IMG/VR virus record: IMGVR_UViG_3300033513_000011
Span: 1 to 52,813 of that record
Source of the DNA: a virus
Lineage: Duplodnaviria > Caudoviricetes
Direction: 5' to 3' (one strand)
DNA length: 52,813 nucleotides
Positions 6,612-52,813 of the stretch are shown here, in pieces. Every line of letters starts with the position of its first letter. Position 1 is the stretch's first letter. A program made the position numbers and the translations under genes. Under the pieces are notes generated by a model. The model ran no database searches. It was not told the DNA's origin and saw only the letters and a program-made list of their open reading frames with translations.

Positions 6612-6649
6612 GTTTTCTCCTTCCTATTGAGAGTCTGATATAGGGTTGA

Positions 6650-6985: not shown

Positions 6986-7225
6986 AGTTGCCTCCTTTCT
7001 ATATAGGTTTCGGATATAGGGTTAGTGGATATGAAAAAGGATGATTACAGATGTGCCAGCTTGAGTTAGGGCTAAGCTGGCACGAAAACGCCCCCGCTTA
7101 TTTAGGGTAAAGCAGGGTAAGACCCAGTGTACAGAAAGCGCAGTTCAAAGGCTTACGGAAGGCGCTTTCTAAGCTCTAGGCTATAGAGTTTGGGTGATGC
7201 CATGTGCTGACATCAGGCTATTCAG

Positions 7226-29162: not shown

Positions 29163-29855
29163 ATGTTATTCCCCATCCGCCCCATGTTTGACAAGGATCA
29201 GGACCCCGCAGGCGATCCGCCTGAGCCACCTGATTCTAAAAAGCAACCGGCCGGTGATCCCCCTAAACCCCCAGAACCCAAGAAGGAAGAGAACTGGGAG
29301 GAACGCTACATAGGCTTGCAGAAGACCGTCGCCAAGAAGGACGGCCAGATCACGACGCTGCAGGAGAAGATCGACCAGTTGGTTGCTGATCTCGAGGAGC
29401 TGCGTACCAATGCCAGCGCCACCGAGAAAGACAAGACAACCCTCGAAACTTCTGCCAGGCAGCTTCAAGAGCAAATGGCAACCCTTACCTCTGAGCGCGA
29501 TGGCCTGAAGAAACAGCTAGCCCAACAGCAAGTAATCATCAACAAGTTCCCGCAGCTTGCGCACTTGGCCAAGTACATCCCTCCAGCTGAGACCGAGGAA
29601 GACTTCATAAAGAACGCTACTGACTTTGCCGCCGACCTGAAAACGGCCATTGACAGCGGCGTGAAGGACCTCCTCAAAGGGGCCTCGCCGCCCCAGCCGC
29701 CTGACGACCGCAAACCTCCTACAGAAGATGCAGAGGAGGTAGCTTACCGCAAGATGGTCAAGCTGGCTGGCGTCCCAGGCAAGGAAGAGGAGTATGAGGT
29801 TGCGCGCAAGGCTTGGCTAGAGCTTTCTCAAAAGGCTCCAACTCCTACCCCATGA
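29163..29855 (+). CDS. capsid scaffolding protein
   Basis: Pro/Asp-rich N-terminus, WEERYIGLQ, long coiled coil, directly upstream of MCP. Confidence 0.75.
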   Translation: MLFPIRPMFDKDQDPAGDPPEPPDSKKQPAGDPPKPPEPKKEENWEERYIGLQKTVAKKDGQITTLQEKIDQLVADLEELRTNASATEKDKTTLETSARQLQEQMATLTSERDGLKKQLAQQQVIINKFPQLAHLAKYIPPAETEEDFIKNATDFAADLKTAIDSGVKDLLKGASPPQPPDDRKPPTEDAEEVAYRKMVKLAGVPGKEEEYEVARKAWLELSQKAPTPTP

Positions 29856-29863
29856 GGTGAGAT

Positions 29864-31246
29864 ATGACTACGGGTGACTTTGACACCTATTACTCAGACA
29901 ACCCCTGGGAGGTGATCGACAAGAATCAGAGGACGTGGTACGACCCGGACTTGATCGCGTTGTTCCGGCAGCGCGCCCTCTTCACCCCTACCATCCAGTT
30001 CGTAAAGAACCTTGGTGACGTTCGCGCTACCAAGATGGTGATGAACCAATTGCTCGATCCCCACCCGGACTACACCGCTCTGGCCGTACGCCAAATATGG
30101 ATGCCAGCCAGCCACATTGACTCCCGCCAACTGGAGATCACGTTCACCAGGTACGGCGGCAAGGTGGCCTACAACAACTACGATGATATGGTGACCTACT
30201 GGCGCCAGAATGGCCAGGAAGGTATTCGCCGTATCATGCGTGGTGCTCTGGGTTCGCATATGACGGATGTCCTGGACCTCCTGGCCCGCAACGCCTATCT
30301 GAAAGGCGCTCTGGACACCGGTTATGTGCTCTACCAGGGTGGAGGCACCAGTTTCAACGACATCGCCACGACCGACCTCTTTGACATCAAGATTGCCATG
30401 GAGATCTGGCTGGGCATGTCCCTACGAGGCGTAGCCTCAGCCTTGGGCGAAAGCGGTGTTGCCAATAGCATCGTTTGCTATACCACGCCCTCTGTGATCT
30501 ACGATATCCAGACCGTCACAGGCAGCGAGTGGATCTCGGTCAACCAGTACCAGGGACAGCAAGCCCTCCTGCGCTACGAGGTTGGCTCCTACAAGAATGT
30601 GCGCTTTGTGCAGTCGCCCAAGCTGGTCTTGTGGAACGCCGGCGCACTCATCGCCCAGGGCACCATCGGTGCTGCAGTGCATGCGGGCGATGGCGCCCCT
30701 GATCCCTCCTCAACCAAAGTCGACGGGACGTACATGGTGGGGCAGGAAACTGCCGGCATCGTGAACTACATCCCGGTCAGCACTTGGACGACTGGTGCAT
30801 TGTCGGATATCAACGTCAATGACGTGATTACGATCCACCTGACCCGCACCAGCTCTTACGGCATCACCAATGGCGTGAACCCCTTCGAAGGAACCGCCCA
30901 GGTGCGCCGCGTGGTTGCCAAGGTGGATAGCTCCCCCGATCAACTCGTCCTGGATAAGCCAGTCATGCTGGACTTCGCCACCGATCTCGGTGCTGGAGTC
31001 TACGGCTATGTGACCAAAGGTCGCAACGTTCACGGCAACATCTTCGTTGGCGGCCCACAGGGTATTGTCAGCGGTGTGGCTGCGCCCCCGCGCCTCCACA
31101 CGCCTCCGCCTGTTGACGACTTCGAGATGGTTCAGCGCTTCTCCTGGGATGCCTATATGGGCTACCAGCCATACGCGCCGGAGGTCTTCGAGGTTGTCTT
31201 CTGCGCTGGCACAACCCGCTTGAAGGGAGCCGGAGCGGTCCAGTAA
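29864..31246 (+). CDS. major capsid protein (HK97 fold, N4-gp56-like)
   Basis: RYGGKV, YEVGSYKNVRFVQSP, DDFEMVQRFSWDAYMG motifs; position after scaffold. Confidence 0.85.
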   Translation: MTTGDFDTYYSDNPWEVIDKNQRTWYDPDLIALFRQRALFTPTIQFVKNLGDVRATKMVMNQLLDPHPDYTALAVRQIWMPASHIDSRQLEITFTRYGGKVAYNNYDDMVTYWRQNGQEGIRRIMRGALGSHMTDVLDLLARNAYLKGALDTGYVLYQGGGTSFNDIATTDLFDIKIAMEIWLGMSLRGVASALGESGVANSIVCYTTPSVIYDIQTVTGSEWISVNQYQGQQALLRYEVGSYKNVRFVQSPKLVLWNAGALIAQGTIGAAVHAGDGAPDPSSTKVDGTYMVGQETAGIVNYIPVSTWTTGALSDINVNDVITIHLTRTSSYGITNGVNPFEGTAQVRRVVAKVDSSPDQLVLDKPVMLDFATDLGAGVYGYVTKGRNVHGNIFVGGPQGIVSGVAAPPRLHTPPPVDDFEMVQRFSWDAYMGYQPYAPEVFEVVFCAGTTRLKGAGAVQ

Positions 31247-31247
31247 C

Positions 31248-31883
31248 ATGACTACACTCGGTGATCTTCGCCTGCGCATACTGCGCATGCTGGACGATCC
31301 AGAGGGAGGTGGGTATCCTAATGAGCTGCTGTTCGACGGCATGTGTGCAGCTCTAGATGCCATCCTCCCCTGGGTGCCCAAGACAGCTATCACCACACTT
31401 GCCTGTGATGGTACGCTGACCGCCTTTGCGCTTCCGGATGATCTCTATGACATAGAGTCGCTGGTGGCCTACAACGGTGAAGTGCTACCGAGGATATCTC
31501 TGTCGCCCGGGAACTTCCTGGGCGTCAATGCTCCCAACCCTTATAGCTGGCTCGAATACCCTGCTGGCTCTGTCTCTTTTGGAAAAGCACCACCTGACGC
31601 AGTTACTCTGTACTACTTGGCTTACTGGGATAAACCCGAAACCTATGATGCTAACTTCGTCCTTACCACACCAGGTTATGCCATACATGGTTTAGCTCTT
31701 TACTCAATGGCCTACGCTTTGAACCCAGCTGCTGTAGGGGTGGCTGAGATCAACCCGTACAAAACCAAGGTGGATAGTGGCACACCGGAGCACAACCCGC
31801 TTCAGCGTTCTGTCACTTTCATCCTGGAGGCCTTCACGCGCGAGATGAATCGCCACCCGAAACACATGAGGGCTGTCAAATGA
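31248..31883 (+). CDS. head-tail adaptor protein
   Basis: MTTLGDLRLRILRMLDD, FALPDDLYDI; position after MCP. Confidence 0.65.
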   Translation: MTTLGDLRLRILRMLDDPEGGGYPNELLFDGMCAALDAILPWVPKTAITTLACDGTLTAFALPDDLYDIESLVAYNGEVLPRISLSPGNFLGVNAPNPYSWLEYPAGSVSFGKAPPDAVTLYYLAYWDKPETYDANFVLTTPGYAIHGLALYSMAYALNPAAVGVAEINPYKTKVDSGTPEHNPLQRSVTFILEAFTREMNRHPKHMRAVK

Positions 31884-32449
31884 CGGACCCTATACCGACC
31901 GAGTTTCCTCAACAGATCATCCCCATGCTGCTATGGCGCTTGAAGGAGCACCTTGACACCGTGATGGTGCAAAACGTGCCCGAGTCAAGCCCAACCAGGG
32001 CTGTACTGGTCAAAGTGGGACGGTTTCAAGAGGACCCAATAGACAAAAACGTCTCAATAGCTATATCTAGTGGCGACTTCGAAGATCCCAAATATCTGGA
32101 CGCGCGCATTGACAACCCTGGAGTAGAGGACTTTATCTTGCGTAACCTGCCTGTCGGCGAGATCGGAGGCGGCGAATACTGGTGGCGCAGAGGCTCGATC
32201 TACTTCTCGACTTACTTTGTCCGGCAACGCTATCCAGAAGAACAGGCCATGCAATATGCCTATGAGTTCTACGGCAGGCTACTCCAGCAAGTAAAGCTGG
32301 CCAATATCGACCTGCCTGTCGATGACTTTGGTGAAGGCGCTTTCCCACCTGTCTACATCGAAGGTGCCTCCTTCTTCGAGAGTGGAGGCAAACAGAAGTT
32401 CATCTGGCGCGGGAAGCTCCTTTGGAGAGTTCTTACTTGGCGACCTTAG
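31880..32449 (+). CDS. putative tail terminator / neck protein
   Basis: Position before tail tube; alpha-beta pattern. Confidence 0.5.
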   Translation: MTDPIPTEFPQQIIPMLLWRLKEHLDTVMVQNVPESSPTRAVLVKVGRFQEDPIDKNVSIAISSGDFEDPKYLDARIDNPGVEDFILRNLPVGEIGGGEYWWRRGSIYFSTYFVRQRYPEEQAMQYAYEFYGRLLQQVKLANIDLPVDDFGEGAFPPVYIEGASFFESGGKQKFIWRGKLLWRVLTWRP

Positions 32450-32464: not shown

Positions 32465-33547
32465 ATGGCAATTACTGCCCAAACCGGTATTTTCTCTTTC
32501 GGCGGTCAAAGTGCCAAGGGTACTATTGCAGCTACTTTCTATCAGCATCGTGGTTCGGACATCGACCTGGCAACCGTTTCGGATGACCGCCTGGGACCGC
32601 CTGAGGTTGGCGGTATCCCCACACCGACCATCCCTTACCGCGCTGGCGTCATGGCCACCGGTGGTGCTCTGATCAACCCACGCCTCGAGAACACCCTGGG
32701 CTGGTTGCTCTACGGTACCATGGGTGCTATCAATACCCTCAGCGACAAAGATGTTCTGGGTAATACAGTCACCTCGATGTATACCCATGAGTTCACCTTT
32801 GCTACAGATGCTGGCTATGTGCCTTGGATGAGCTTCCGTAAGCATATCCCGCCCATCTCTACTGGCGGCTTAGGCGAGCTGTTCCAAGACTGCAAGGTTG
32901 TAGCCTTGACCCTGGCTCTTCCCAATGATGGCCTGATCAACGCTCGTGTGGATGCCCTCGGTATCGCTTCTGGGGCCAACTTCGATGATGACCCCAGCTG
33001 GACCTACGGCAACACCCAGTTCGAGGACTGGCAGTCCATCCCCATTGGCTCTGTGACCGGGGGCTTCCTGAAAGTCCCTGACTTCTCAGCAACTGCCCTG
33101 CCCATTACGCAGGCAACCGTCACCTTCCAGAACGCACCCCTAGACATTCGTATGGAGAAGGTCTACGGGTCGCCCTACCTGGAAGATGTAACCATCGTCG
33201 GGCGTCAAATGACGGTGGATATGGTGCTCAAGTGGACTGACCCCCAGCTCTACTTGAAGATCCTAACTGGTTCCACTACTGGTACCCAGTGGGTAGCTCA
33301 ACCCTTCCTTGGCGACCTGGACGTATACAGCCTGTCATCCAAACTGGCAGGTGGTGTAAGTCCAGATTCTGCCTATGGTCTGCGCATCCAGGCCCCTGAG
33401 ATCATGTACCAGGTGGTCGGCGGCATCCGCTTGGCTGGCGGACAGTCCGTGATGATGCGCCTTACAGGCACGGCCATTGCTGGCGGTGCTTATTACTCGA
33501 AGATCAGCCTGGGTAATAAGAACACCACCTACACCTGGCCTTCATAA
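32465..33547 (+). CDS. major tail tube protein
   Basis: 360 aa; QSAKGT, LGWLLYGTMG, YTHEFT, FQDCKVVALTL, GRQMTVDM patterns; position before chaperones. Confidence 0.8.
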   Translation: MAITAQTGIFSFGGQSAKGTIAATFYQHRGSDIDLATVSDDRLGPPEVGGIPTPTIPYRAGVMATGGALINPRLENTLGWLLYGTMGAINTLSDKDVLGNTVTSMYTHEFTFATDAGYVPWMSFRKHIPPISTGGLGELFQDCKVVALTLALPNDGLINARVDALGIASGANFDDDPSWTYGNTQFEDWQSIPIGSVTGGFLKVPDFSATALPITQATVTFQNAPLDIRMEKVYGSPYLEDVTIVGRQMTVDMVLKWTDPQLYLKILTGSTTGTQWVAQPFLGDLDVYSLSSKLAGGVSPDSAYGLRIQAPEIMYQVVGGIRLAGGQSVMMRLTGTAIAGGAYYSKISLGNKNTTYTWPS

Positions 33548-33556
33548 AAGGACAGT

Positions 33557-33601
33557 AGGATCGGGAGGGAGAGCGCCTCCTACGTTTTCCCTCCTGATCC
33601 T
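33557..33601 (+). terminator. long hairpin after tail tube gene
   Basis: AGGATCGGGAGGGAGAGCG / CGTTTTCCCTCCTGATCCT 19-bp stem with GU pairs; no clear U tail. Confidence 0.5.
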
Positions 33602-33613
33602 CCACGCCGTGGA
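33601..33613 (+). repeat. palindrome TCCAC-N3-GTGGA copy 6
   Basis: TCCTCCACGCCGTGGAGGA overlapping RBS of 33621..33851. Confidence 0.85.
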
Positions 33614-33620
33614 GGATACT

Positions 33621-33851
33621 ATGGAAAATGCCAAGCTCACGCTACACCTGAGGCGCACCAAGCATGGAAGCCTTGTACCAGAGAAGATCACCATTGGGGA
33701 ACATTCCATCCCAGTCGTGGCCTGTCAGCTCAACTTTTCAGCAAAGGGCGAGGTGGACTACGCGGAGATCAGGATATCCATGTGGCAGTGCGACTTACAC
33801 ATTACGGAGGAAATGGAAAATGCCAGTCCAACTGATAGCGCCGATCTATGA
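33621..33851 (+). CDS. small hypothetical protein inserted between tail tube and chaperone
   Basis: Start MENAKL at 33621 after GGAGG. Confidence 0.55.
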   Translation: MENAKLTLHLRRTKHGSLVPEKITIGEHSIPVVACQLNFSAKGEVDYAEIRISMWQCDLHITEEMENASPTDSADL

Positions 33852-34278
33852 AGTATTCACGCTTGATAGGACGGACACAAAGTATGGAAACACGGGCGAA
33901 CCCACTGTCATCACAGTGAAACAAGCCCGGGAGCACGAGCATATTACACGCCAGCGCCTCTATGCCAAGCTGGAGCGCAAATGGTCAAGCGAAGACGATC
34001 CTGATGACATCCGTCTCATCCAGGAAGTCTGTCAGGAAGAAGTTCGACGTGAGGAAGCCTACCTGACTCTTGTAGATTGCAACCTTTTAGACCCAGAGGG
34101 CAAGTTGTTGTTCAAGTCCTCTAAAAGCAAGAACGACGACCACCCTCGCCTGGTTATGGATAAACAAGCTTTCTATCAGGCTTGGGGTCTGCTCTTTCCG
34201 GACATTGCACAAGAGATCATTGAGAAAATTCACGAGGTAAACCCTCAGTGGGCAGGCCCGCTGGGGGAAGCCGGGTAG
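33820..34278 (+). CDS. tail assembly chaperone (gpG-like)
   Basis: Start MPVQL at 33820 after GGAGG; between tail tube and TMP; ends IHEVNPQW then slippery site. Confidence 0.75.
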   Translation: MPVQLIAPIYEVFTLDRTDTKYGNTGEPTVITVKQAREHEHITRQRLYAKLERKWSSEDDPDDIRLIQEVCQEEVRREEAYLTLVDCNLLDPEGKLLFKSSKSKNDDHPRLVMDKQAFYQAWGLLFPDIAQEIIEKIHEVNPQWAGPLGEAG

Positions 34279-34559
34279 AGGGGGGTCTCGAAGAACTCCG
34301 GCAGGCGCTGTTCGACTACTACGGCGCCCTGAATGAACTAAGAACACTTGCTGAAAGCCAGCCGATACTGGCTTCACAGGTAAAGATCCCAGAGAAGCCT
34401 GAGGCTTTGAAACTCTGGGAGATGTGTCAGGTAAATGGCGTACCGCTCGTCAGTGGTGGTCTTCTAGACCAACCGCATATTTGGCTCGAGGAGCAGGCAG
34501 TTGTCATAAGCACTCAGAGACAGTTTGATATTGCCCAGCGAGGACAAGATGGCAGATAG
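34263..34559 (+). CDS. -1 frameshift extension of tail chaperone (gpGT-like)
   Basis: G GGG GAA heptamer at 34263..34269 in frame; -1 frame is open to 34559 (GSRVEGGLEELRQ...GGLLDQPHIW). Confidence 0.75.
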   Translation, partial: GGSRVEGGLEELRQALFDYYGALNELRTLAESQPILASQVKIPEKPEALKLWEMCQVNGVPLVSGGLLDQPHIWLEEQAVVISTQRQFDIAQRGQDGR

Positions 34560-37500
34560 AGGGTCGCCCTTAGCAATCAATACCCCAGTGCCAGGCAAAG
34601 GCTTCAATCCTTACACCAAGATAGACCTGGCTTCCTTTGAGCAGCTGATCCAGTCCAATCTCAAGATATTACTCAAAGACCTCGGTCCGGTAACCGTCGA
34701 CACTTTGAAGTTCAGCGAGTTTGTGCGCGTCTCTATCAGGCCTCAAACTGGCGCAGCTTCCTTACGCCCACCCCTGGTGCTAGATCTGGCTCCTGGCTTC
34801 AAGACGCCTATGGGGCCAGCCGTGGAGTGGTATACCCGCTCCGGCTGGTCAGCCTCATTCGGACCAGAAGGTTGGATTGAATCTCCAGACCAGATGAGAC
34901 TGCATGCTCCAATGGAAGCCTTTGCCAAGTACATCCAGGCTTCTTTCAATCCAAACTTCATCCAGAAGAGCCCGCATCTTACTGAGGTAGACCGCTTCTC
35001 CAGAGTGGTAGCCAGTGGGGAGGATATCGTGCCCCACTCGCAGATCCCAGGCGGCGTGATGCGCCTGGATCCCACTATACCTCATGTCTCACGGGCGATG
35101 ATGGCCTCAGAGATAACCTTTGGGTTAGGCGAGGCAGCCACTGATCCAGCACAAGTCGAGCGAGCCATTGTCAACCGGGCTATGCTGGCACGCACCTTGC
35201 TTAGAGCTGCTACACCCCAAGAAGCGGCACTGATGAATGAAGAACAGTTCTGGGCAGCCTTACCGACCTACGGTTACGCCTTTGTCAAAGAGGGCGGGCG
35301 GGTGCGTATGCGCCAGGCTGGCATCGAGATAGGACCAGAGCAAGTACAGATTGTTGGCGCCGATCCCAACAAGGCTATCAAGTACATCAACGTCGCTCCG
35401 GGTGGGGGTGCCAGATCTGCCGCCGATATCATCCAGATCGATCCGGAAACCGGGCGGCCCATCTCCATGAGACCTCAGCCGATCACCGGCATGGCACCTG
35501 GCCAACGGGCAGGCCCCAAGCGCATCCTCAACGTGACCTACCCTGGGCAAGAAGAGCGCCCAGTTGCTGCAGTCTTACCTGATGTCGCCTTTATGGCCGA
35601 GAGTCTGCTTTCGGGTAGTCTAGTGTCCTACGGGGATCCCTTCAAGGGTGCGGTTAGCGCAGCTTACCCCAAAAAGCTCGAGCCTGATCTACCTCAGATC
35701 AATGCCTACCAGCTGGAGAAAGCCAAGTGGGAATGGGGACGCTTCCAGGAAATAGCTGGAAAGCCAGGGGAGAAGGTTACCTACAGGCGCCTCGACGAGA
35801 AGCTTCCCAAGGCTATTTCTCCACAAGAGAGCGCCATCATTGGCTTATTGCGCTACCCTGAGCTGGAGACAAACACTGAGGTGATCTATCCTATCCGCAT
35901 CTCTGCTCAGGATGCTCCGCTTTACCTGACCAGTGGTCCAGAACAAGCCAAGCTTTATGTGCCACCCTATTTCACCCCAGGTGTAGGGGACTGGCGCAAC
36001 ATGCCCGAGGGCAAAAAGACCATCGAGACGAGACTCCTGGCCGAGGGCATGGGCAGAGGTTTCCAGGGGCAGATCTTGCCAGAAGCTATGTCCGAGATCG
36101 GCATGATCCTGCCTTATCACTTGGAGACTGCAGCAGCTATCAAAGGTGGTGGCTCAAAGGTCGTACTCTCGCCTGCCCTGCACCCCATTGGCTCACCGAT
36201 CAGGGAGCCTGTACCTGGTGCTCCCGGCCGGCAGCTTTCCGGTATCACTGGCGATGTCAAGGTAATCGAGTACAGCTTCATTGGGCACTACGGCTCACTG
36301 GTTCCTGAGCTACAGCAGCAGATGCTGGGCTTATTCGACAGGATAAACCCGGATCTCGCCAAGGAGCTTATCCGCCAGAATCAGGAGAAGGCCGCTGAGC
36401 TGGTGGAGGTCTATGGGCAGAAAACGCATGGCTCACCCACCTCTGAGGAAATGGCAAAGGTCTACGCCGAGAAGATGGGACAGCCCTACCTGCGCAAAGC
36501 CAGCGCCGAGCAGATGTTTACACATCTGCGCCAACTGGTAGAGGAGCTCCCGATCGAGAAGTCCGTAGGTATGTTCGGCTGGGGCAACGTCCCTTCACAA
36601 GAATACACCCTGGGCTCCGTACCAAGCAGCGCAAAGACCATGATCCTGCGTTCTCTATTCCGTGCCACCAGAGAGACTTTCCTAAAAACTCACAAGATCG
36701 ATATTGCCACCCAGGAGGGAAGGCGGGCTTTCAGGCAGATCGTGCCAGGTGGATGGGAAGCATATCGCAACGAGATCATTAGCTTTGAGCCTGAGACACG
36801 CGGTCACTTACGTGGTATCGAGCCGGAGTTCCGGGCTGCTCAGCACGGGCCGGCGCTCATCGGCACTTTGGTTGCCCCCGTGGTCAATGAATTCCTGGCA
36901 GGCGTAGGCCGGGTGGGACCGGAGGAGCAACGCGCCATGTACGTAGCCTGGAAGGAGGCGGCTGTCTCCCTGGGCTTTGACCCAGAGAGTGTGCTAGGCG
37001 CTTCTGCTACAGGCATCCTGCCACCTGCAGCTGAGGCCTGGCGCAACATTGCTGAGGTTGGCCGTGCCCTTGGGTCTTATGCCCGCATCAAGCCCATGCC
37101 AGCCAGAGCTGCGAAAGGGGAGCCAGCCAGGCTGAGCGTCACTGAGCTTACCGAACAGGGACGCCATAAGCTTGAGGGTTTTTTGGCTACAGGTGTTACT
37201 GATCTTACAGCGATCGAGAGTTTCATCCAGGAGAATCTAGGCCAAGCAGGTGCACTTTACATGCCGGGCGCCAAGATCCCTTACATGGTTCGTCCTGGGT
37301 GGATGGAGGCAGTCACACACGAGGCATTCAGTGAGGGTGCCCAAGAGCCTGAGCCTGTCCAGATCATGATCAAGCGCTATCCCGAACTCTTGCAGTCGTG
37401 GCTATCTGGCTATGAGCCTGGCACAGAACTGAGAGGTGAAGCGCTACTCTCTGAGTACCAAGGGTGGATGGAATCTACCTTCAAGTCTAGCTCACGCACC

Positions 37501-40500
37501 ATCTCCAAAGTCCTCACCCAGCGCTATGGCGGCATCATGGGCCGCTTTGCCGGGCTTATGTTGCCAGTCGGTGAAAGCCTCATGCCTGAGCAACAGCTTG
37601 AGACCATGCTCATGGAGCGGGCACGCGCCAGTGGCGTACGACCTTTCGCCAAAAGCAAGGAGGGCGTTCCCTGGATTGCACAGGCTAAGGAATTTATTGC
37701 TCAAACTGGTTTCTTGCATGGGCTGACTGTACGCGAGCCCGCCTTCCAGCCTATGGGCGGCGCCCAATCTGGACGCATTATCTCAGAGCGCATCCTCAAA
37801 GACCGGGGGCTTTACCTGCCGCCCTCTACCGTTGTTCGCCCAGGTGGAGAGATCCAGCCTGGCTCCTGGATGACTACCGGCTGGGCTTCCCTTGAGGGTT
37901 TGCCTATCATCGCCATGCATGGCGACTGGGACGCCGATATGATCTACAAGGCTGGAGTAGCCATGCTATCACAGACCGGGCTAACTCCGCTGGCTGGGGC
38001 GCTCAGGCCGCCTACTGGTGACACACCTATAGAACGCCGCCGCTTGATCCAGCAAGTAGACCAGGCTCTCCGGGCGTCTACAGGCGGCACACCTTGGGAG
38101 CCCGGCGGATCTTTCAACGTCTTGCAGAAGTCCCTGACCCGTATCCTGCAGTCTGTTATGAGTGGCAAACATGGTCGGGAAGCGCCGCCTTCAGCAGAGG
38201 GCGTGACCGGTATCGGCATCAGCACAGTTCCTTGGGAGGAGCTGGTCAAAACCTCTGGCGAGGTCATCCGCACTGAGCAAGGCATGGGCACTACTTATCG
38301 CATGCGCCAGCTGTTTGAAGCTTTCGCTACAGCCAGGGGATGGAGCCCGGAAGCGATTACCCGAGGCGGCACAGCCCAGGCTTACCTTTACCAGACCTAC
38401 CTGGATAAGCTGACCAAGGAGATCGAGGAACGCAGGGGCTTCCGCAATATTGAAACTATCCTGTCCAGTGCTTTCTTCGGCGAGGGACGTGGTGGAGAGT
38501 TCAGCCTGCTCTACAAACCCTCTGCAGTTCGCAGGCATGTCCCATTGTGGACTGCTGAGGCTCACAAAGGTGTCAGCGATGAGGAACGTGGCCGGGCCTT
38601 CTCTGGGCGTGTAGGTAGCTCCCTGGCCATACAACTAGCCGAGGATATCGCCGGCATGGAGACACCCGACTATGGTCTGGCAGCTTTCCTGACAGCTACC
38701 AAGTTCGAGGACATACCTCAGCTGGAAGAACGCATGAAGAAAGAGGGTATCGTTCGGGCACTTACTGGTTCTGGTGAGGGTTTGATGGAAACCAAGGGCT
38801 ATCTCTATGGCCGGGATATCACCGAGACCCTGCTGGGTGGAACAACCGTCTTCTCCGCCTTTGCCCGTGACATTGGCTTCCCTGCTGTAGCCACCCGCAA
38901 GGGAGCCCGCATGTCCAAGGAAGAGCCTGGCGTGCCAGTTATGCAACGCATCGGAAGACAGCCTATCCCCTGGATGGGTAAAGTCGTCCCCCTGCGTGAG
39001 CTTGGACTACAGCCTGATGTGAGTATGGCAGCCGGGTTATTCAGCTACTACACGCGGCGCTGGGGCACTACTACCCCAGAGTTTACCAAGCGCTTCGCTC
39101 CCTGGCCGGCTGAGGCTATGGGTAGCTACATGGCCCTCAAGGAACGCCTGGTTTCTGAAGGAAAACCAGTGCCTTTTATGCTGGACTACATGATCAGCCA
39201 GGAGAGCGTCTCGGCCTTACTGCGTGGCGTGGGCGGCGTGGAGCCTGCCACTATGCCAAGGCTTACCTCTGCTGAGGCTGCTCGCTTCGTACCTGGCAAG
39301 ATGACAGTCGGCTCAACCACTGTTCCTTTTCTGGCTATGCCTGGCAAGCTGGGTATCATGGGTCAATCCCTTTACACAGAAGAGCTGGCATATGCCAAAC
39401 AGAAAGAGCTTGAGCTGGTCGCCAGCCAAGCCACCTTCGGTATTGAGCCAGAGAAGCTACGCCCAGCTTCTGAAGCTGCCTTCCAGAAGAAAATGTTTGA
39501 GGCGGGCTATGCCTTCGAGGAGCAGCAGCGCGGTGAGCTGTTCAAGAGAGAGCGGATGTTCCTGTACGATGAGCAGGGCCGCCCGATCGTCGGACCCTTG
39601 TATGGCATCCCTCATGAGAAACAGGGCATAGTACCAGCCGCCGAGATTGCTGGAGAAACCTATACCGAGAGTCCTTTCTTCAAGACTTATGGGCGCTTTG
39701 CACCTGATGTCCTGGGCTTGGTCTTCGAGAAGGGCAAAGAGAATGTCGCATCTGTGTTGCAAGCCTCTATGAAGTGGAGCCTGACGCCTCTGGCTGCTGA
39801 GCAGAAACCTGCCTCATTGTTTGTACGCATGCAAGAGGCGCAATACTTCTACCCCCTGCAAGCCAGAGCTTTCAAGGGATCAGCCGCCAGCGGCCCATTG
39901 CGCGAATTGCTTGAGCCGCAGATCCGTGAGACACCCTGGTTCAAAGAGTTCTGGAGCTTCGAAGGGCAGAAAGCCTTTGCCGAGTCCCAGAAGCTGCCCG
40001 TACCCAGTGAAGAGATGATGCGGGCTCAGCAAGAGCAGATTATCCGGCGCAATATCAAGCTATGGTCATCTGGTTTGCGCCAATCTACGCTTGGCATAGT
40101 GCCCTACCGCTTCGAAGCTTTCTCCGGCTGGGGTGAGCCTGGCGCCTATCAAGTAGCAGGCGGTCCAGAAGGAGTCGAGATTCCGGGCGTGCGTGAGCCA
40201 CTGCTCAGGCGCTACATTGCTAAGGGCTTTATGCGCGGCCAGCAGCTAATGGCACCAGAAAATATTGCCGAGGCCATGCCCCAGATCGCAGCGGCCGCCT
40301 TTGAGGCAGGCACGCCTTTCACTGAGTTAGGGCCTGCTTTCCTAGGGCTACAGGGTGCCACAGGCCAATGGAAAGAGTGGGTCAGCCGCTACAACGTTGC
40401 CTTGCGCCCAACAACTATCCCCGGTGCTAAGCCTACTGGCATGGTCAAAGCACAGTTGGGCTATCAGGGTGGAGAACACGAGCCGCGTCCCGGCGAGAAT

Positions 40501-43500
40501 ATGCCCCCCGCTCCAGGTGAGGGCACCACAATCAACGTGGAAAGTGGCGAGCAGGTGGTCATCAACCCGGCTTCTAGCGGGGCGGGTGCTCCACCCCATG
40601 TCCCTCCGATCGCTGGTGCGTCTGCCGGCGGGATGAATGACTTTGCCAATCTTTTGGGCCAGAAGCTCACTGAAGCCCTACAGCAGACTGGCATCGGTAT
40701 CTACCACGCCGCTGGAGGTGGCACTTCGCCTGTCTTACAAGATCTACGTGCCGTTGAGGGCGTGCTCTCCATGCAAGGCATGAACACACCCCAGTTCCGC
40801 GCTTGGGGCGCCCAAATGCAGACTATGCTTGAAGGTATCTTGGGGCTACCCGCCGAGCAGCAAGGGCGCTACCAGGTCATGGAGCTGGCCCAAATGGCAA
40901 AGACCGGCGCGCCTGAGCAGCAAGCCGCTTTCCGTACCTTGATCCAGGCTAACCGGCCTACTATCCAATCTGGTTACAATGTTTTGCAAACGGTTGGCGC
41001 TTCCTACCGGGCAGCTTTGAAGGGCACACCTATGAGCGGGGAGACCATGGGCGCCCTGGCCTCGCTGATGGGTTTGACTGAACAAGAGGTTCGTGAGCAG
41101 ATCTCCGGAGGGCTGGCGCTCTCTCCAGAACTGGGCACCCTAGCCGGCAGCTTGCGCACCGCGCATGCCTTACAGACAACCGCCTCAGACTGGCGCACAA
41201 CTGCTAAGACACGTGGCTTCACCGAGGCCAATATCGGCGAGCATCTAGATGAGACTGGCAAGAAGATCAAGGGTTTGGGCGAGGTTGTCGTCGAGGCTAC
41301 CGAGAAGCTCTCCAGCCTCAACAAACAGTTTGCCTCAGCGACATCCGAGACTGAGCGCCTGGCTATCTCTCAAGAAGCTCAAGTTCAGAAAGGTGTCCTG
41401 GCCTCAGCTTTAGGACAGGAGCGCCTTGTCCAGGCCAGGGGAACTCTCAAATACCTGCAGGCAGCCCGGGTAGCTGGGGCAGAAGTAACTCCGGAAGCTT
41501 GGGGGCAAGCCTCTGCTGAAGTCCTGGCTGCAGAACAGCAAGTCGTTAGCGGGGAGCAGGCACAAGCTTACGGGCGCCAGCCCTGGCTGAGACGAGCTCT
41601 TGGACAGGGCCAAGCTGGACGTTTCATGCGCGGTTTGATCGGTGGCTGGGGCCTCATGTACATGGGACATCTGGCTTCTTTCCCCATGCAAACCTGGCAA
41701 TATGGCTACCAAGAGTCCGAGCAGTTCCAGATGCAGATGGCTGCTCAAGCAGGAGCTACTCTCGGACCATCTATCAGACCTTGGGCTTCACCAACCTACG
41801 CTGCTCTGCAAACCCAGATCGCCTATGGCGCGCCGATGGCAGGCGCAGCTCAGCTGGCTGGTGCCCGTATTCCTGGAGGTGCCAGGGATATCTTTGGAGC
41901 AGGTCTGGCAAGCTTATCTGCTGGCGCAATGGCCTTGTACTTTGGCTCTGTGGGTGCACAAGCGGGGCTAACTGGCTTGACTACTGCTATGAATACAGCT
42001 GCAGTACCAGCCATGGCACTAGGTCTGCTAGGCGGGCTATCCCTTACTCAGGCGGCTTACAACCAGTTCCCAGAACAGAACATTCTGGCTCTAGGTACAT
42101 CTCAGGTGCGCCAGCAAAGAGAGACCAATCCTCTAGTCCAAGGACTTCTGGGACTGGATGTCTGGTGGCGCTCGCTCAACCGGCCCGAGGCTACCCAGGC
42201 TGCCACACAGTACACTCAGGCTGTCAACCAGACTCTGACCTCAGGTGCCTTTAGTGCTCAACAGATCAGCCGTGGACCGCAAGGCTACTTCATAGCTCCA
42301 CAGCGTGGAGGCGCACCGACTGCTCAGCAGATGTACACCGTCGCTCAGCGCATCGCAGCCGACCCACGCTTCAGTGACCTAGACCCCAACCTGGTAGGAC
42401 AGGTAGCCTTGCAACTACTTCCTACTGGACAGGCAACCGAGAACAACATTCGGCAGATGGTTACCGCTTTAGCTGCAGGGACCAACGTCCCAGCTATAGC
42501 CCAGGCTGTCCAACAGTTCACGGGCGGAGGCTACCAGCCCCCTGCTGCGCTGGGTGCTCTGCAGGTACAGATCAGCGGCATGCAGCCCAGACAACTAGCT
42601 CGCCTGCAACGTGGGCTAGAACTGATGGGGCGCACGCCAGGTATCCAGCAATGGCTGGGTGGGGGTGCTCCAATAAGCGCGCAAGCTGTCCAGGGATTAG
42701 CTGAGGGCGCTTTCGCTGGTATTCAGGGCGGAGCTTATGAGGCACCTTTCTTACAACGGGCTGGCATCGCCGCAGAACGTTTTGGCTTAGGCTTGACCAC
42801 TCCTGTTAACTTGGGTCTTTATCAACGCCAGCGCACCTGGACACCTCAACAGTGGTACCTAGAAAGCCAACGCAACGCCTTGCTAAATAGAGGCGCTGCG
42901 CTCGGTGGGCAATTAGCCACTGCCGGCGTGCCTTACGAAACTATGCTTGGTGTTACTGGCTGGGCTGAGCTCAGCCCAGCCAACATGGGAATAGCAGAGA
43001 GAGTACGCTCCATGGACCGCTTTGCGGTCACCGGACTGGCCGCAGCAGGTGCAATCGGAAACCAGTATGCCACAATGGATATCGGGCTTGGCGGCAATCT
43101 CACCGGCTACCAGCTATTTGCCACCTCATTGCAACAAGGCACGCAGACACCCATCCAGACTGCTAACCAACTTCTACCTACTGGCTGGCAGAACCGGCCG
43201 GGCGCTCAAGCTATGGTCTATGGCATCAACGTCCAAACCGGACAGGTTTACCAGAATGCTGCTCAGCGACAGGCCGCTATCCAGGCAGGTGTACCAGCTA
43301 GCCAGATTGTCGGCGGGTTGCAGGGCGGGCAGTGGCAACAACAGTGGGCTGGCTGGAACTACCAGGCCGCTACTTCTGGTATCAATCTAGCGCAGATCGC
43401 CCTGCAGGAGAAGTACCAGCCTCTCTTCTGGAATATCGAGGACCGCCAGCGTGCCCTCCAGGATCGGCAGATGGCCTGGAGCTTCCAGATGCAGGGGCAG

Positions 43501-44532
43501 CAACTGGGGATGCAGCGCAGCCAGTTCTACGAAAACTTTGCCCTGAACATGCAGGGGACGCAGATGCAGCGCCAGTTCACGATGAGGGACTGGGCTTGGC
43601 AGAACCAGATGCGCCAGATGCAGTGGGGTTGGAGACAGGAGGACTTCGCCGAGAACGTGCGCTTCATGACCGGGCGCGAGCGCCGCCTGGCTGAGCGGCA
43701 GATGGAACGGGAAACCACCATGTTCGGCATGGAGGGCACCCGCATCGATGAGCAACGTCGCCAGCAGAAAGAGCTATGGGCGCTCGAGGATCAACGCTTC
43801 GAGCTTCAGCGCAAGCACTTCGAAGAGCAGTTCAAGCTATCTGAGGAGAACCTCAAGAAGCAGAAGGAGTTCTACGAAGAGCAGAAGAAGCTTAGAGATG
43901 AACAGACTAAGCTTCAGCGAGCTTACTGGAAGGAGCAGATCGAGCTACAGAAGCAGGCTGCCGGCGCAAGCGCTACCTACGCCGAGGCTATGAAGACCGC
44001 TGCCCTGGACATGGAACTGATTAGCAAGGGCCAGGGCGATGTACTGGCTGGATACCAGGTTGCAGCTGCTAGTGAGACCGAGATGATCAATACCCTCATC
44101 AAGGGTCTGAACCACATCATCAAGAATGCCCCGGATGCACTGGCTTCTATCGTGGATGCCCTTGCTGGAGGCGGGACGAAGCTGCTTCCAGAGTTTACTG
44201 GTGGTGGTAAGAAGGACAAAACCCCCAAAAGCGGTAATCCCCGCCAGATTGGCGGACCGCATATGCCTGGCGTGTCTGTCATAGGCGAGGGCGGACGCGA
44301 GCTCCTGGAAAGCAGCGTGCCCATGCACGTCTACCCAAACAACGAGCTGAAGTCCATGCTATATGGTAGCCAGAGCAACTACACATCCTACTGGAACAAC
44401 AGCTACGTAGATCTGGCACCTCCACAGCGTGGAGGACAAGGAGGACCGGCTGTCCTGATTGTCAATATCGGCAACGAACGCCTTGGGCGCTTCGTGATCG
44501 AGAAGTTTGACAAAGCCCTCGAGGTAGGCTGA
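34549..44532 (+). CDS. tape measure protein with N-terminal two-barrel RNA polymerase-like region (3,327 aa)
   Basis: TMP position; A/G/Q-rich helical C-half, aromatic-spaced coiled coil, C-terminal RQIGG...VIGEGGRELL motif; N-half motifs IKGGGSKVVL, TVREP, HGDWDAD, YQTYLDK. Confidence 0.85.
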   Translation: MADRGSPLAINTPVPGKGFNPYTKIDLASFEQLIQSNLKILLKDLGPVTVDTLKFSEFVRVSIRPQTGAASLRPPLVLDLAPGFKTPMGPAVEWYTRSGWSASFGPEGWIESPDQMRLHAPMEAFAKYIQASFNPNFIQKSPHLTEVDRFSRVVASGEDIVPHSQIPGGVMRLDPTIPHVSRAMMASEITFGLGEAATDPAQVERAIVNRAMLARTLLRAATPQEAALMNEEQFWAALPTYGYAFVKEGGRVRMRQAGIEIGPEQVQIVGADPNKAIKYINVAPGGGARSAADIIQIDPETGRPISMRPQPITGMAPGQRAGPKRILNVTYPGQEERPVAAVLPDVAFMAESLLSGSLVSYGDPFKGAVSAAYPKKLEPDLPQINAYQLEKAKWEWGRFQEIAGKPGEKVTYRRLDEKLPKAISPQESAIIGLLRYPELETNTEVIYPIRISAQDAPLYLTSGPEQAKLYVPPYFTPGVGDWRNMPEGKKTIETRLLAEGMGRGFQGQILPEAMSEIGMILPYHLETAAAIKGGGSKVVLSPALHPIGSPIREPVPGAPGRQLSGITGDVKVIEYSFIGHYGSLVPELQQQMLGLFDRINPDLAKELIRQNQEKAAELVEVYGQKTHGSPTSEEMAKVYAEKMGQPYLRKASAEQMFTHLRQLVEELPIEKSVGMFGWGNVPSQEYTLGSVPSSAKTMILRSLFRATRETFLKTHKIDIATQEGRRAFRQIVPGGWEAYRNEIISFEPETRGHLRGIEPEFRAAQHGPALIGTLVAPVVNEFLAGVGRVGPEEQRAMYVAWKEAAVSLGFDPESVLGASATGILPPAAEAWRNIAEVGRALGSYARIKPMPARAAKGEPARLSVTELTEQGRHKLEGFLATGVTDLTAIESFIQENLGQAGALYMPGAKIPYMVRPGWMEAVTHEAFSEGAQEPEPVQIMIKRYPELLQSWLSGYEPGTELRGEALLSEYQGWMESTFKSSSRTISKVLTQRYGGIMGRFAGLMLPVGESLMPEQQLETMLMERARASGVRPFAKSKEGVPWIAQAKEFIAQTGFLHGLTVREPAFQPMGGAQSGRIISERILKDRGLYLPPSTVVRPGGEIQPGSWMTTGWASLEGLPIIAMHGDWDADMIYKAGVAMLSQTGLTPLAGALRPPTGDTPIERRRLIQQVDQALRASTGGTPWEPGGSFNVLQKSLTRILQSVMSGKHGREAPPSAEGVTGIGISTVPWEELVKTSGEVIRTEQGMGTTYRMRQLFEAFATARGWSPEAITRGGTAQAYLYQTYLDKLTKEIEERRGFRNIETILSSAFFGEGRGGEFSLLYKPSAVRRHVPLWTAEAHKGVSDEERGRAFSGRVGSSLAIQLAEDIAGMETPDYGLAAFLTATKFEDIPQLEERMKKEGIVRALTGSGEGLMETKGYLYGRDITETLLGGTTVFSAFARDIGFPAVATRKGARMSKEEPGVPVMQRIGRQPIPWMGKVVPLRELGLQPDVSMAAGLFSYYTRRWGTTTPEFTKRFAPWPAEAMGSYMALKERLVSEGKPVPFMLDYMISQESVSALLRGVGGVEPATMPRLTSAEAARFVPGKMTVGSTTVPFLAMPGKLGIMGQSLYTEELAYAKQKELELVASQATFGIEPEKLRPASEAAFQKKMFEAGYAFEEQQRGELFKRERMFLYDEQGRPIVGPLYGIPHEKQGIVPAAEIAGETYTESPFFKTYGRFAPDVLGLVFEKGKENVASVLQASMKWSLTPLAAEQKPASLFVRMQEAQYFYPLQARAFKGSAASGPLRELLEPQIRETPWFKEFWSFEGQKAFAESQKLPVPSEEMMRAQQEQIIRRNIKLWSSGLRQSTLGIVPYRFEAFSGWGEPGAYQVAGGPEGVEIPGVREPLLRRYIAKGFMRGQQLMAPENIAEAMPQIAAAAFEAGTPFTELGPAFLGLQGATGQWKEWVSRYNVALRPTTIPGAKPTGMVKAQLGYQGGEHEPRPGENMPPAPGEGTTINVESGEQVVINPASSGAGAPPHVPPIAGASAGGMNDFANLLGQKLTEALQQTGIGIYHAAGGGTSPVLQDLRAVEGVLSMQGMNTPQFRAWGAQMQTMLEGILGLPAEQQGRYQVMELAQMAKTGAPEQQAAFRTLIQANRPTIQSGYNVLQTVGASYRAALKGTPMSGETMGALASLMGLTEQEVREQISGGLALSPELGTLAGSLRTAHALQTTASDWRTTAKTRGFTEANIGEHLDETGKKIKGLGEVVVEATEKLSSLNKQFASATSETERLAISQEAQVQKGVLASALGQERLVQARGTLKYLQAARVAGAEVTPEAWGQASAEVLAAEQQVVSGEQAQAYGRQPWLRRALGQGQAGRFMRGLIGGWGLMYMGHLASFPMQTWQYGYQESEQFQMQMAAQAGATLGPSIRPWASPTYAALQTQIAYGAPMAGAAQLAGARIPGGARDIFGAGLASLSAGAMALYFGSVGAQAGLTGLTTAMNTAAVPAMALGLLGGLSLTQAAYNQFPEQNILALGTSQVRQQRETNPLVQGLLGLDVWWRSLNRPEATQAATQYTQAVNQTLTSGAFSAQQISRGPQGYFIAPQRGGAPTAQQMYTVAQRIAADPRFSDLDPNLVGQVALQLLPTGQATENNIRQMVTALAAGTNVPAIAQAVQQFTGGGYQPPAALGALQVQISGMQPRQLARLQRGLELMGRTPGIQQWLGGGAPISAQAVQGLAEGAFAGIQGGAYEAPFLQRAGIAAERFGLGLTTPVNLGLYQRQRTWTPQQWYLESQRNALLNRGAALGGQLATAGVPYETMLGVTGWAELSPANMGIAERVRSMDRFAVTGLAAAGAIGNQYATMDIGLGGNLTGYQLFATSLQQGTQTPIQTANQLLPTGWQNRPGAQAMVYGINVQTGQVYQNAAQRQAAIQAGVPASQIVGGLQGGQWQQQWAGWNYQAATSGINLAQIALQEKYQPLFWNIEDRQRALQDRQMAWSFQMQGQQLGMQRSQFYENFALNMQGTQMQRQFTMRDWAWQNQMRQMQWGWRQEDFAENVRFMTGRERRLAERQMERETTMFGMEGTRIDEQRRQQKELWALEDQRFELQRKHFEEQFKLSEENLKKQKEFYEEQKKLRDEQTKLQRAYWKEQIELQKQAAGASATYAEAMKTAALDMELISKGQGDVLAGYQVAAASETEMINTLIKGLNHIIKNAPDALASIVDALAGGGTKLLPEFTGGGKKDKTPKSGNPRQIGGPHMPGVSVIGEGGRELLESSVPMHVYPNNELKSMLYGSQSNYTSYWNNSYVDLAPPQRGGQGGPAVLIVNIGNERLGRFVIEKFDKALEVG
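42297..42309 (+). repeat. palindrome TCCAC-N3-GTGGA copy 7
   Basis: CTCCACAGCGTGGAGG. Confidence 0.8.
44421..44433 (+). repeat. palindrome TCCAC-N3-GTGGA copy 8
   Basis: CCTCCACAGCGTGGAGG near TMP 3' end. Confidence 0.85.
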
Positions 44533-50999: not shown

Positions 51000-51853
51000 G
51001 ACTCCGGCGATCTATCCGCAAGACCATACAGCGCGGGTCAGTCTCCATCGGAACCGCTGTCAGCTACAACAACGGCAGGGCTACGGTCCGAATAGGTGGC
51101 ACACGCCTGACTAATCTACCAGTCATGGGAGCCGTTGTGCCGGGGCAGCAAGTCGCCGTTGACTACTCAGCGGGAGTCGTCCCTGTCGTCCGCCCTCTGG
51201 GCATACCTACCACGCCAGTAACCCCAGCTCCACTGGCAACCACCAAGAACAAACGCGTTCAAGAGGTAGAAGGAGGCCAAATATTACTTGACATCCTGCG
51301 GCCGGATTACGGCATGTACACTTTGATATACCATGAGATTAACTGGGAGACATATATTCAGTACGTCTGGGACGGCGTGCCTGTTGCCATTCGCTGGGCT
51401 GGCTGCACCACATGGGAAGGCTACCGCTACTACTGTGTCACATGGGACGCGGGCAACATGTACCAGGGCTACACCGGGTGGGGCACAACCTATCTTACTA
51501 TCCCTGTCTCCGGTAAGTACCTAATCAGCCTGGATATCAACCTGGGTGAGTTCTGGGCCAACGATTGGGCAGTCATGGAGAAATTTCCTGGCTATTATCG
51601 CATCCAGCTTTTTGCAGGTGGAACGCTGCTTGCTGAAGAGTCAGCCTGGAAGAATTTCTCCGTCAACCTGTGCGCTATAGCCAGCCTGGCAGCTGGTGAT
51701 GTAGTCTCAGCCTGGATATACCCAAAAAATGCAGTGGGTTACTGGACTGGTGGGCAGGATGCCTACTCCCTATGGCCATGGGTAAGCAGCCTTGCCTTTA
51801 CGGCCGGCAACAACTCTATAAGCATTCACCTGCTACCAGGCACAATGGTGTAA
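50996..51853 (+). CDS. putative receptor-binding protein, paralog 3
   Basis: RLTNLP...PGQQVAVDYSAG; TIPVSGKYLIS, LAAGDVVSAWI. Confidence 0.65.
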   Translation: MRLRRSIRKTIQRGSVSIGTAVSYNNGRATVRIGGTRLTNLPVMGAVVPGQQVAVDYSAGVVPVVRPLGIPTTPVTPAPLATTKNKRVQEVEGGQILLDILRPDYGMYTLIYHEINWETYIQYVWDGVPVAIRWAGCTTWEGYRYYCVTWDAGNMYQGYTGWGTTYLTIPVSGKYLISLDINLGEFWANDWAVMEKFPGYYRIQLFAGGTLLAEESAWKNFSVNLCAIASLAAGDVVSAWIYPKNAVGYWTGGQDAYSLWPWVSSLAFTAGNNSISIHLLPGTMV

Positions 51854-51864
51854 AGGAGGCTCTT

Positions 51865-52813
51865 ATGCGCCCTCAAGAATACAGTATCCTACACCGCGAG
51901 CTAAAGGACTTCGCAGGTCCAGTCGATCTGAGGATCCGCCTGCTCTCGGTTATCCATGCACTGGCTTACCCGCCTCTCCCCAAGCTCCTGGACATGAGCC
52001 GCTACCAGGTGGGAGATGTGATCAACCCCAAGGAGATCAAGGCTGCAGGTTACGTGGGCATCATCCTGCAAGCTTCCTATGGGGTATACGCCGACTCGGC
52101 TTTCAGCCACTTCTGGCCCATGTTCCTGGATGAGGGTTTCATCGTTATGACCTACCACCTCTTCTGGGCTACCTTGTCAGGCTTCAACCAAGCGGATAAG
52201 CATCTGGAGACGGTCGCTCCACTCTGGCAAGCAGCTGGTGTCAGGTGGCCTGCCTGGAATGACATCGAGGTGCGCGACGGTGTGCTCGTATCCACCCGCC
52301 AGGGCCGTGCTGAGGACTGGAGATACGAGATCCAGAAGGAAACCAAGCCGGGAACTTACTGCTCCTACTCACTATGGGATGAGCTGATGGGCGGGATAGC
52401 CTTAGGTGACCAGCTAGGCTGGCAAGCCGCCTGGAACCCTTACTACGACTTTACCCTCTGCCGTGGCTGGAAGCCGGAACAAACCGTGCTCAGGCAGAAT
52501 GGCGTCGCCCGCAAGCACGACTGGGTTGAGGTTGTGCCTGGCTGTAGTGGCGACGTGGATGTCAATGAGTTTCGAGGAACCCTGGAGGAACTCTATCTTC
52601 TGGCAGGGGAAACCCCGCCAGCACCACCCCCACCCCCTGAACCGGAGGATGATATGACTGCAATTGAGAACCTGAAAGCTGGACGCGACAAGCTGGTCGC
52701 CATTCACGGTGAGCTAGATGTCGCCATAACCACCATCAACGCTGGCATCGCAGAGCTCGAAGCCGGCCAGCCACCTACGCCCCCACCTCCAACACCACAA
52801 CCAACCACCGTCA
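51865..52813 (+). CDS. endolysin, GH25 muramidase (3' truncated by window; absent from ORF track)
   Basis: AAAGGAGG RBS, ATG 51865; LDMSRYQ, IILQASYG, TYHLF, WNDIE (DxE), WQAAW, VPGCSGDVDVNEF, then Pro-rich linkers. Confidence 0.85.
   Translation, partial: MRPQEYSILHRELKDFAGPVDLRIRLLSVIHALAYPPLPKLLDMSRYQVGDVINPKEIKAAGYVGIILQASYGVYADSAFSHFWPMFLDEGFIVMTYHLFWATLSGFNQADKHLETVAPLWQAAGVRWPAWNDIEVRDGVLVSTRQGRAEDWRYEIQKETKPGTYCSYSLWDELMGGIALGDQLGWQAAWNPYYDFTLCRGWKPEQTVLRQNGVARKHDWVEVVPGCSGDVDVNEFRGTLEELYLLAGETPPAPPPPPEPEDDMTAIENLKAGRDKLVAIHGELDVAITTINAGIAELEAGQPPTPPPPTPQPTTV

Follow-up and report, generated by a model that had tools for sequence, protein, structure and literature searches.

A candidate two-barrel RNA polymerase in the N-terminal half of a putative phage tape measure protein

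We studied a virus of the Caudoviricetes that is known only as a metagenomic record (IMG/VR record IMGVR_UViG_3300033513_000011). The window that we analysed is this whole record, which is linear and has 52,813 bp (72% complete by CheckV; GC content 50-59%). Our subject is one giant open reading frame (ORF) within it, whose product of 3,327 amino acids (aa), P0001 in our protein set, has the position and composition of the tape measure protein (TMP) of a phage tail. A structure model of the upstream part of its N-terminal half draws beta chains of RNA polymerase (RNAP) and a model of the downstream part draws beta-prime chains, in the order of a fused enzyme, and the protein's family keeps the catalytic residue set of RNAPs. 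We therefore think that the N-terminal half very probably contains a highly diverged two-barrel RNAP core, as far as predicted folds can tell. By analogy with gp96 of Thermus phage P23-45, the whole protein probably works as a TMP-fused virion RNAP.

Conserved motifs in a family of giant proteins

The giant ORF runs without interruption from an ATG at 34549, which has a GAGGA-type ribosome site before it, to a stop codon at 44530-44532. We divide it into these parts:

34549..35535, plus strand: N-terminal region (aa 1-329), 26-42% mean identity to three close relatives
35656..36135, plus strand: beta-strand domain (aa 370-529) that resembles the flap/wall domain of the second-largest RNAP subunit
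36142..36159, plus strand: Lys pair K532/K537, candidate counterpart of K1065/K1073 of Escherichia coli beta (conserved in 28/29 and 23/28 sequences)
36259..36261, plus strand: K571 (conserved in 28/29)
36265..37539, plus strand: connector (aa 573-997), mostly helical in predicted secondary structure, with a variable insert near aa 720-790
37540..38013, plus strand: predicted beta-prime-type double-psi beta-barrel (DPBB-A, aa 998-1155)
37732..37740, plus strand: R1062-E-P1064, an R-x-P motif, counterpart of R425-A-P427 of beta-prime (R in 28/31, P in 31/31)
37924..37938, plus strand: D1126-W-D1128-A-D1130, candidate Mg-binding DxDxD loop (each Asp in 31/31)
38284..38856, plus strand: helical region (aa 1246-1436), candidate bridge helix and trigger loop, with conserved G1247, Y1250 and YQxYLD (1281-1286)
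38857..40458, plus strand: further conserved region (aa 1437-1970), 22-34% identity to three relatives
40459..40656, plus strand: Gly/Pro/Ala-rich linker (aa 1971-2036)
40657..44529, plus strand: tape-measure-like part (aa 2037-3327), rich in Gly, Ala and Gln

An initial annotation of this DNA had judged about 1,300 N-terminal residues to look globular. The conserved N-terminal part that is unlike a TMP is longer, at about 1,950-2,000 residues. The six motifs that the annotation had picked out are all there: IKGGGSKVVL at 36139..36168 (aa 531-540), GRFAGLMLPVGESLMPEQQL at 37540..37599 (aa 998-1017), TVREP (aa 1060-1064, with REP at 37732..37740), GDWDAD at 37921..37938 (aa 1125-1130), GMGTTY from 38281 (aa 1245-1250), and YQTYLDK at 38389..38409 (aa 1281-1287).

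Searches of Pfam, PHROG, and the sequences in the PDB with the giant protein, as a single sequence or as a profile, gave nothing usable; at E ≤ 0.01 in Pfam and PHROG there was only a chance-level match to OAM_alpha. When we scored a profile of aa 387-1500 against 1.84 billion representative proteins, we found 36 relatives at E ≤ 1e-3, and 34 of these were at 1e-10 or below. Most are giants as well (27 of the 36 have 2,685-4,456 aa, and the other nine have 104-1,232 aa). A word-indexed search gave three giants of 3,482-4,054 aa that are about 30-34% identical over their first 1,800 residues or so. None of the 36 relatives has a functional name, and the ten that we looked up are all from metagenome contigs of 3.6-84 kb and are all named hypothetical. 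One cluster (P0011, P0052, and P0054) consists of partial hypothetical proteins from bins of Candidatus Thorarchaeota (contigs of 2.9-17.8 kb). Phage contigs may have been assigned to the wrong bins here, or the cluster may hint at viruses of archaea. Searching the family alignment against viral, genome, and metagenome contigs gave no confirmed locus, a tblastn search of 50,697 phage records with the first 2,000 aa gave no match, and aa 950-1450 had no usable match in the ESM Atlas.

Conservation of the motifs in homologs had been set beforehand as a test that could refute the polymerase reading, and the six motifs turned out to hold the family's most conserved residues. We placed the 36 family sequences on the profile with hmmalign and counted, for each column, the sequences that span the site. 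Of 1,110 positions, just 44 reach 80% identity or more across a minimum of 25 sequences. The six motifs span 54 positions and hold 17 of these 44, where 2.1 would be expected (hypergeometric p 9e-13). Besides the residues counted in the list above, G998 (29/33), R999 (32/33), and L1285 (30/30) are strongly conserved, and the top columns also include G1125, G1247, Y1250, and Y1281-Q-x-Y-L-D1286.

The three aspartates are identical in every sequence that covers the site. At least one DxDxD is found in 30 of the 36 family proteins (a count that leaves out P0005, an unrelated ORF of the window), and the six proteins that lack it are fragments of 104-948 aa. Each long member has one DxDxD at the aligned site. 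A single DxDxD is not rare by chance, at roughly 0.4 per protein of such size, as estimated from an Asp content of about 5%. Its conservation across the family alignment, on the other hand, is far beyond chance. The middle residues vary (DWDAD, DFDFD, DWDYD, DIDID, DLDVD, and others), which is how a metal-binding DxDxD would be expected to behave.

Some relatives carry additional domains. P0023 has a Pfam RNase_T domain (PF00929, E 2.4e-7, 31.9 bits, above the cut-off) at aa 132-240, N-terminal of the RNAP-like region, which points to work on nucleic acids. The only PDB matches to the first 350 or so residues of P0004 are to RNase T, at E 1.5-2. Pfam finds no exonuclease in P0003 or P0004, but both probably carry the same N-terminal DEDDh exonuclease as P0023; the protein in our window does not have this domain. 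In P0003, the connector region has an insert of about 100 aa that contains, at aa 1150-1181, a match above the cut-off to E3_binding (PF02817, E 6.8e-6). Finally, two of the longest relatives have a Hint or pretoxin-HINT domain near the C-terminus (P0022, aa 4060-4175; P0023, aa 4274-4393; E 1e-11 to 4e-12), perhaps as an intein or as a module that cleaves itself within the tape-measure part.

Predicted folds and comparison with known polymerases

We made two structure models. Model 1 is an AlphaFold2 model of aa 387-1500 from a 34-row alignment, with a mean predicted local distance difference test score (pLDDT) of 68.4 and a predicted template modelling score (pTM) of 0.53; the final 58 residues have a pLDDT of about 25. 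When Foldseek compared it with the PDB, 36 of the 47 matches listed were RNAP chains (best E 0.027, none at or below 1e-3). The segment that contains the GR, RxP, and DxDxD motifs is predicted to fold like the DPBB of beta-prime, with 9-15% identity over the aligned barrel. The connector has only loose alignments, to the clamp-side N-terminus of the largest subunits of Pol I and Pol II (root-mean-square deviation, or rmsd, of 13 Å), and it is within the connector that the profile matches of most relatives split.

Model 2 covers aa 330-760 (pLDDT 74.2, with low confidence for the first 45 residues). Here, 38 of the 44 Foldseek matches listed were RNAP chains, and the best E of 5.9e-3 is not significant. 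Judging from chain letters and lengths, these are second-largest subunits. Beta chains dominate both the Foldseek and the VIA lists for this model, and in an unbiased search, beta-flap or beta chains were at ranks 4, 5, 9, and 14. The flap-like block ends 3-8 residues before K532/K537, and in E. coli beta, K1065 and K1073 likewise follow residue 1058. The beta-type barrel (DPBB-B) itself is not aligned; there are long alignments to residues 705-1215 of beta, with an rmsd of 8.7 Å. We would expect this second barrel, and catalysis with it, to be present.

Not every double-psi barrel belongs to a polymerase. Cell-wall-cutting barrels of the MltA, RlpA, or 3D type are common in tail proteins, or the barrel might be structural, and the DxDxD might then be an unrelated site for metal or sugar. 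We consider this very unlikely. We set aside a muralytic barrel because none is among the 50 matches listed and because Pfam finds no 3D, RlpA, or transglycosylase domain. Furthermore, a separate upstream model draws beta subunits, in the order of a fused beta/beta-prime enzyme; the conserved K..K, GR, RxP, and DxDxD are the RNAP set; and the domain takes up about 2,000 aa at the N-terminus.

The motifs can also be compared with those of RNAPs at the level of sequence. When we used hhalign to compare the whole family profile with E. coli beta-prime (1,407 aa), the best local match placed the DxDxD on ADFDGDQ (459-493), with a score of 22.3 and an E of 0.18, which is not significant; a reversed-sequence control scored 16.2. 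A relaxed alignment is collinear: it places GGRY on LGKR (343-346), the R-x-P on R425-A-P427 of NRAP, and the aspartates on D460, D462, and D464. This agrees with the initial annotation, which had likened GRFAGLMLPVGESLMPEQQL to the GR motif of beta-prime, TVREP to NRAP, and GDWDAD to NADFDGD. Its other two comparisons are at least consistent with our results. IKGGGSKVVL had been likened to the Lys pair of the beta barrel; the pair is conserved and follows a flap-like domain, but hhalign did not pair K532/K537 with K1065/K1073. Similarly, the proposed bridge-helix and trigger-loop signatures (GMG...YQxYLD) do match that part of the largest subunit, yet the match is a weak, helical one.

All of this fold evidence is silent on substrate and template. 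With a two-barrel fold, the protein might still have another activity: it could act as a PolD-like DNA polymerase or primase, copy RNA templates as QDE-1 does, or serve as a template-independent nucleotidyl transferase. Its role on delivery with the tape measure would then be to prime replication or to evade defences, and not to transcribe early genes. RNAPs and PolD have both barrels in common (PMC10770324), and the N-terminal DEDDh exonuclease of some relatives is more usually found alongside DNA polymerases than alongside RNAPs. Nevertheless, such an activity seems unlikely to us: the barrel matches listed are all largest subunits of RNAPs, with no PolD chain among the 50; the spacing of R-x-P and DxDxD pairs with NRAP and NADFDGD of beta-prime; and among TMP fusions, the one that has been characterised is a DNA-dependent RNAP.

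That fusion is gp96 of P23-45 (PDB 8H2M and 8H2N; relatives in P74-26, G20c, and TSP4), and the precedent named by the initial annotation is sound, as gp96 is an active TMP-fused virion RNAP (PMC10770324). It is a giant TMP with an N-terminal, single-chain, two-barrel RNAP-type region, as we propose for our protein. Like our protein, it is encoded at the same position in the tail module, and it has a single conserved DxDxD with no recognisable similarity to cellular RNAPs outside the motif (PMC10770324). The differences are also clear. No sequence relation to gp96 was detected by hhalign (E 0.34-0.64) or tblastn, nor to gp64. The catalytic motifs are shifted by about 350 residues away from the N-terminus, with the DxDxD at aa 1126 instead of 779. 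From the Lys pair to the DxDxD there are about 590 aa, whereas gp96 has a disordered connector of 67 aa and no clamp (PMC10770324). The connector of our protein has about 460 aa and is predicted to be mostly helical. Our protein has a flap-like domain, unlike gp96, and Pfam does not detect in it the metallopeptidase domain that gp96 has. Nor is there a second RNAP like gp64 in the window, which is 72% complete.

The best structural matches are to the beta and beta-prime subunits of cellular RNAPs and to the non-virion RNAPs of phages AR9 and PhiKZ, which have a beta-prime barrel with NADFDGD and a beta flap followed by a Lys pair. The likeness is collinear, with beta first and then beta-prime, which is also the order in known single-chain enzymes. 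In contrast to our protein, these RNAPs have two or more chains, DFDGD in place of DWDAD, and K-x7-K (in E. coli beta) in place of K-x4-K. Beyond the flap-like, beta-prime barrel, and bridge-helix matches, we recognised no domains of cellular RNAPs in our protein.

Both barrels are in one polypeptide in gp66 (6VR4) of phi14:2 (a crAss-like phage), YonO of SPbeta, and QDE-1 (2J7N), and gp66 is a virion enzyme that is embedded in a very large protein (PMC10770324). Unlike our protein, none of the three is fused to a tape measure, and none is among the matches listed in the searches with our models, so we saw no direct link to them; we take this as an absence and not as evidence. The virion RNAP of the short-tailed phage N4 is a T7-like right-hand polymerase and not a two-barrel enzyme. 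We use it only as a working analogy, as a polymerase that the virion carries and injects for the transcription of early genes (PMC10770324).

If our protein is indeed a TMP-fused virion RNAP, then its beta-like module would comprise the flap-like domain and the conserved Lys pair, and the long helical connector would join this to a beta-prime-like module, whose double-psi barrel would bear G-R999, R1062-x-P1064, and a metal-binding loop at D1126-x-D-x-D1130. The helical region that follows would stand in for the bridge helix and trigger loop. If gp96 is a guide, the tail would be assembled with the polymerase in it as part of the tape measure, and infection would release the polymerase into the cell envelope. 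Once there, it would transcribe the earliest-entering genes of the phage DNA without need of the host's polymerase. Its presence in the virion, its injection, and its role in pre-early transcription are what we would predict.

Several observations weigh against this proposal. As mentioned above, the match that hhalign gives on E. coli beta-prime falls short of significance, with an E of 0.18, and the comparison with E. coli beta was uninformative. Profiles of 4 and of 36 sequences found nothing in gp64 or in residues 1-1200 of gp96 (E 0.34-0.64). This fits the published finding that, outside the DxDxD region, RNAP families have little in common (PMC10770324). The DxDxD loop and its surroundings reach a pLDDT of only 57-65 or so in model 1. 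Because the PDB has many redundant entries for RNAPs, counts such as 50 of 50 RNAP matches are inflated, and gp96, gp64, gp66 of phi14:2, and QDE-1 are not among the 50 matches listed in any of the structure searches. The connector of about 460 aa is unlike the flat, clampless gp96. It is hard to reconcile a folded domain of about 2,000 aa with passage through the tail tube. Finally, we did not find a second polymerase gene or a set of promoters in the window, at its 72% completeness.

The tail module and the rest of the window

The genes around the giant ORF are arranged as follows:

from about 25 kb, plus strand: two large ORFs without annotation; the head genes come after
29163..29855, plus strand: scaffold protein (phrog_172)
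29864..31246, plus strand: major head protein (phrog_1357)
31248..31883, plus strand: SU10-type adaptor (PF24175, 29 bits)
31880..32449, plus strand: ORF without annotation
32465..33547, plus strand: tail tube gene (PF18906, Phage_tube_2, E 1.9e-5; 24.9 bits, just under the cut-off of 27)
33664..34278 and 34248..34559, plus strand: two small overlapping ORFs at the position of tail chaperones, the second in the -1 frame
34549..44532, plus strand: giant ORF (3,327 aa), with an RNAP-like N-terminal half and a tape-measure-like C-terminal part
after the giant ORF, plus strand: ORFs of 233 and 1,379 aa and then three of about 270 aa, without annotation
51772..52812, plus strand: GH25 lysin, at the 3' end of the record

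The giant ORF is at the position of a tape measure gene, as the initial annotation had said: it is a single open frame that follows the tube gene and the two small overlapping ORFs and precedes large tail genes. It is the longest tail gene, and it lies between the chaperone-like pair and the distal tail genes. The two small ORFs have no family match, and no canonical slippery heptamer was confirmed in them. The composition of the C-terminal part also suits a TMP. This part has hydrophobic segments at aa 2359-2378 and 2450-2504, a very conserved helical block rich in W, Q, E, and R at aa 2950-3130, and a conserved C-terminal end, and aa 3001-3100 are 68% identical across four close relatives.

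Alternatively, the TMP label could be wrong, whatever the N-terminal enzyme may be. The giant protein might be polyvalent, or it might be a large virion protein that is internal or gets ejected, and its gene would only happen to lie in the tail module. It matches no curated TMP family in Pfam or PHROG, and the C-terminal 1,300 aa have no tblastn match in the 50,697 phage records. The downstream tail genes lack annotation, and the matches to model 1 in BFVD include a "large polyvalent protein" and an "internal virion protein" at E 0.05-0.5. On the other hand, rows 4 and 6 of the same BFVD matches are a siphovirus "minor tail protein", the gene comes after a tube gene and a pair of small overlapping ORFs whose -1 frame relation is typical of tail chaperones, and no other ORF between the tube and the lysin could serve as a ruler. 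Given this, and the Gly/Ala/Gln-rich C-terminal part with its hydrophobic segments and long helical block, we find it improbable that the protein is something other than the tape measure. The best BFVD match is A0A075BUT7_2, an uncharacterised protein of the Microcystis phage MaMV-DC (E 9.5e-5, probability 0.84), which could be another unrecognised relative; a literature search found no paper that ties Ma-LMM01, a relative of MaMV-DC, to a polymerase.

Elsewhere in the window, the regions 11674-13335 and 16724-18190 include a helicase-like protein (AAA_19/AAA_30, weak) and a protein with a methyltransferase domain. Outside of the giant ORF, DxDxD occurs only in the helicase-like protein and the scaffold protein; both have the DKDxD form, close to the N-terminus. 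An ORF of 977 aa (21922..24855, plus strand), which lies upstream of the head genes, has many short xAYLxG-type repeats on either side of a central beta-rich part. It has no family match and could be a fibre or decoration protein. We considered it as a second, non-virion RNAP and rejected it, as it is repeat-rich and has no DxDxD.

Two kinds of repeated element are also present. The palindrome CCTCCAC-N3-GTGGAGG (a 7-bp stem with a 3-nt loop) occurs eight times with at most two mismatches (1420-1436, 2449-2465, 4470-4486, 15449-15465, 24404-24420, 33599-33615, 42295-42311, and 44419-44435), while 0.31 copies would be expected. At 33599 on the plus strand and at 1420 on the minus strand, an ATG begins within 5 nt after the 3' arm GGAGG, so a hairpin would cover the ribosome binding site. 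Both copies inside the giant gene encode PQRGG. Possibly, the palindrome acts in translational control, as a terminator, or as a polymerase signal. The second element, GATATAGGGTT, is at 6637-6647, at 7013-7023, and, with one mismatch, at 19208-19218 (three matches versus 0.42 expected). It has copies in two intergenic gaps at the switch between the blocks of minus-strand and plus-strand genes, and it may be a promoter element.

What a second TMP-RNAP lineage would mean

Virion RNAPs that are fused to a TMP have been described in a single small group of Thermus phages (PMC10770324). Our full-text literature search found a fusion of polymerase and tape measure only in the P23-45 paper; the supplementary family lists of PMC10770324 were outside of this search and may already include our family. 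If our reading is correct, then this would be only the second known lineage of the TMP-RNAP fusion, with no sequence relation to the first, a different architecture, and dozens of metagenomic members. We could be right or wrong in about equal measure that it is a second lineage, independently evolved or anciently diverged, that defines a new family of single-chain two-barrel enzymes with a beta-flap-like domain and a large connector.

At the least, a set of giant "hypothetical proteins" would gain a concrete annotation. A correct reading would also add a new deep branch to the tree of two-barrel RNAPs, which would bear on the kinship of single-chain and multisubunit enzymes, and some members of this branch would have gained an N-terminal DEDDh exonuclease as well. 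The Thorarchaeota-labelled bins of a few members leave room for a possible link to archaeal viruses. The way in which a tail tube can store some 2,000 aa of catalytic region and then let them out would become a question open to experiment. Because the family forms at least 36 clusters (at 50% identity) from uncultured phages, the coupling of entry to transcription through the tape measure would be a recurrent arrangement rather than an oddity of Thermus phages. In a cellular-type RNAP borne on the tape measure, long-tailed phages would then have a general route to early transcription that does not depend on the host.

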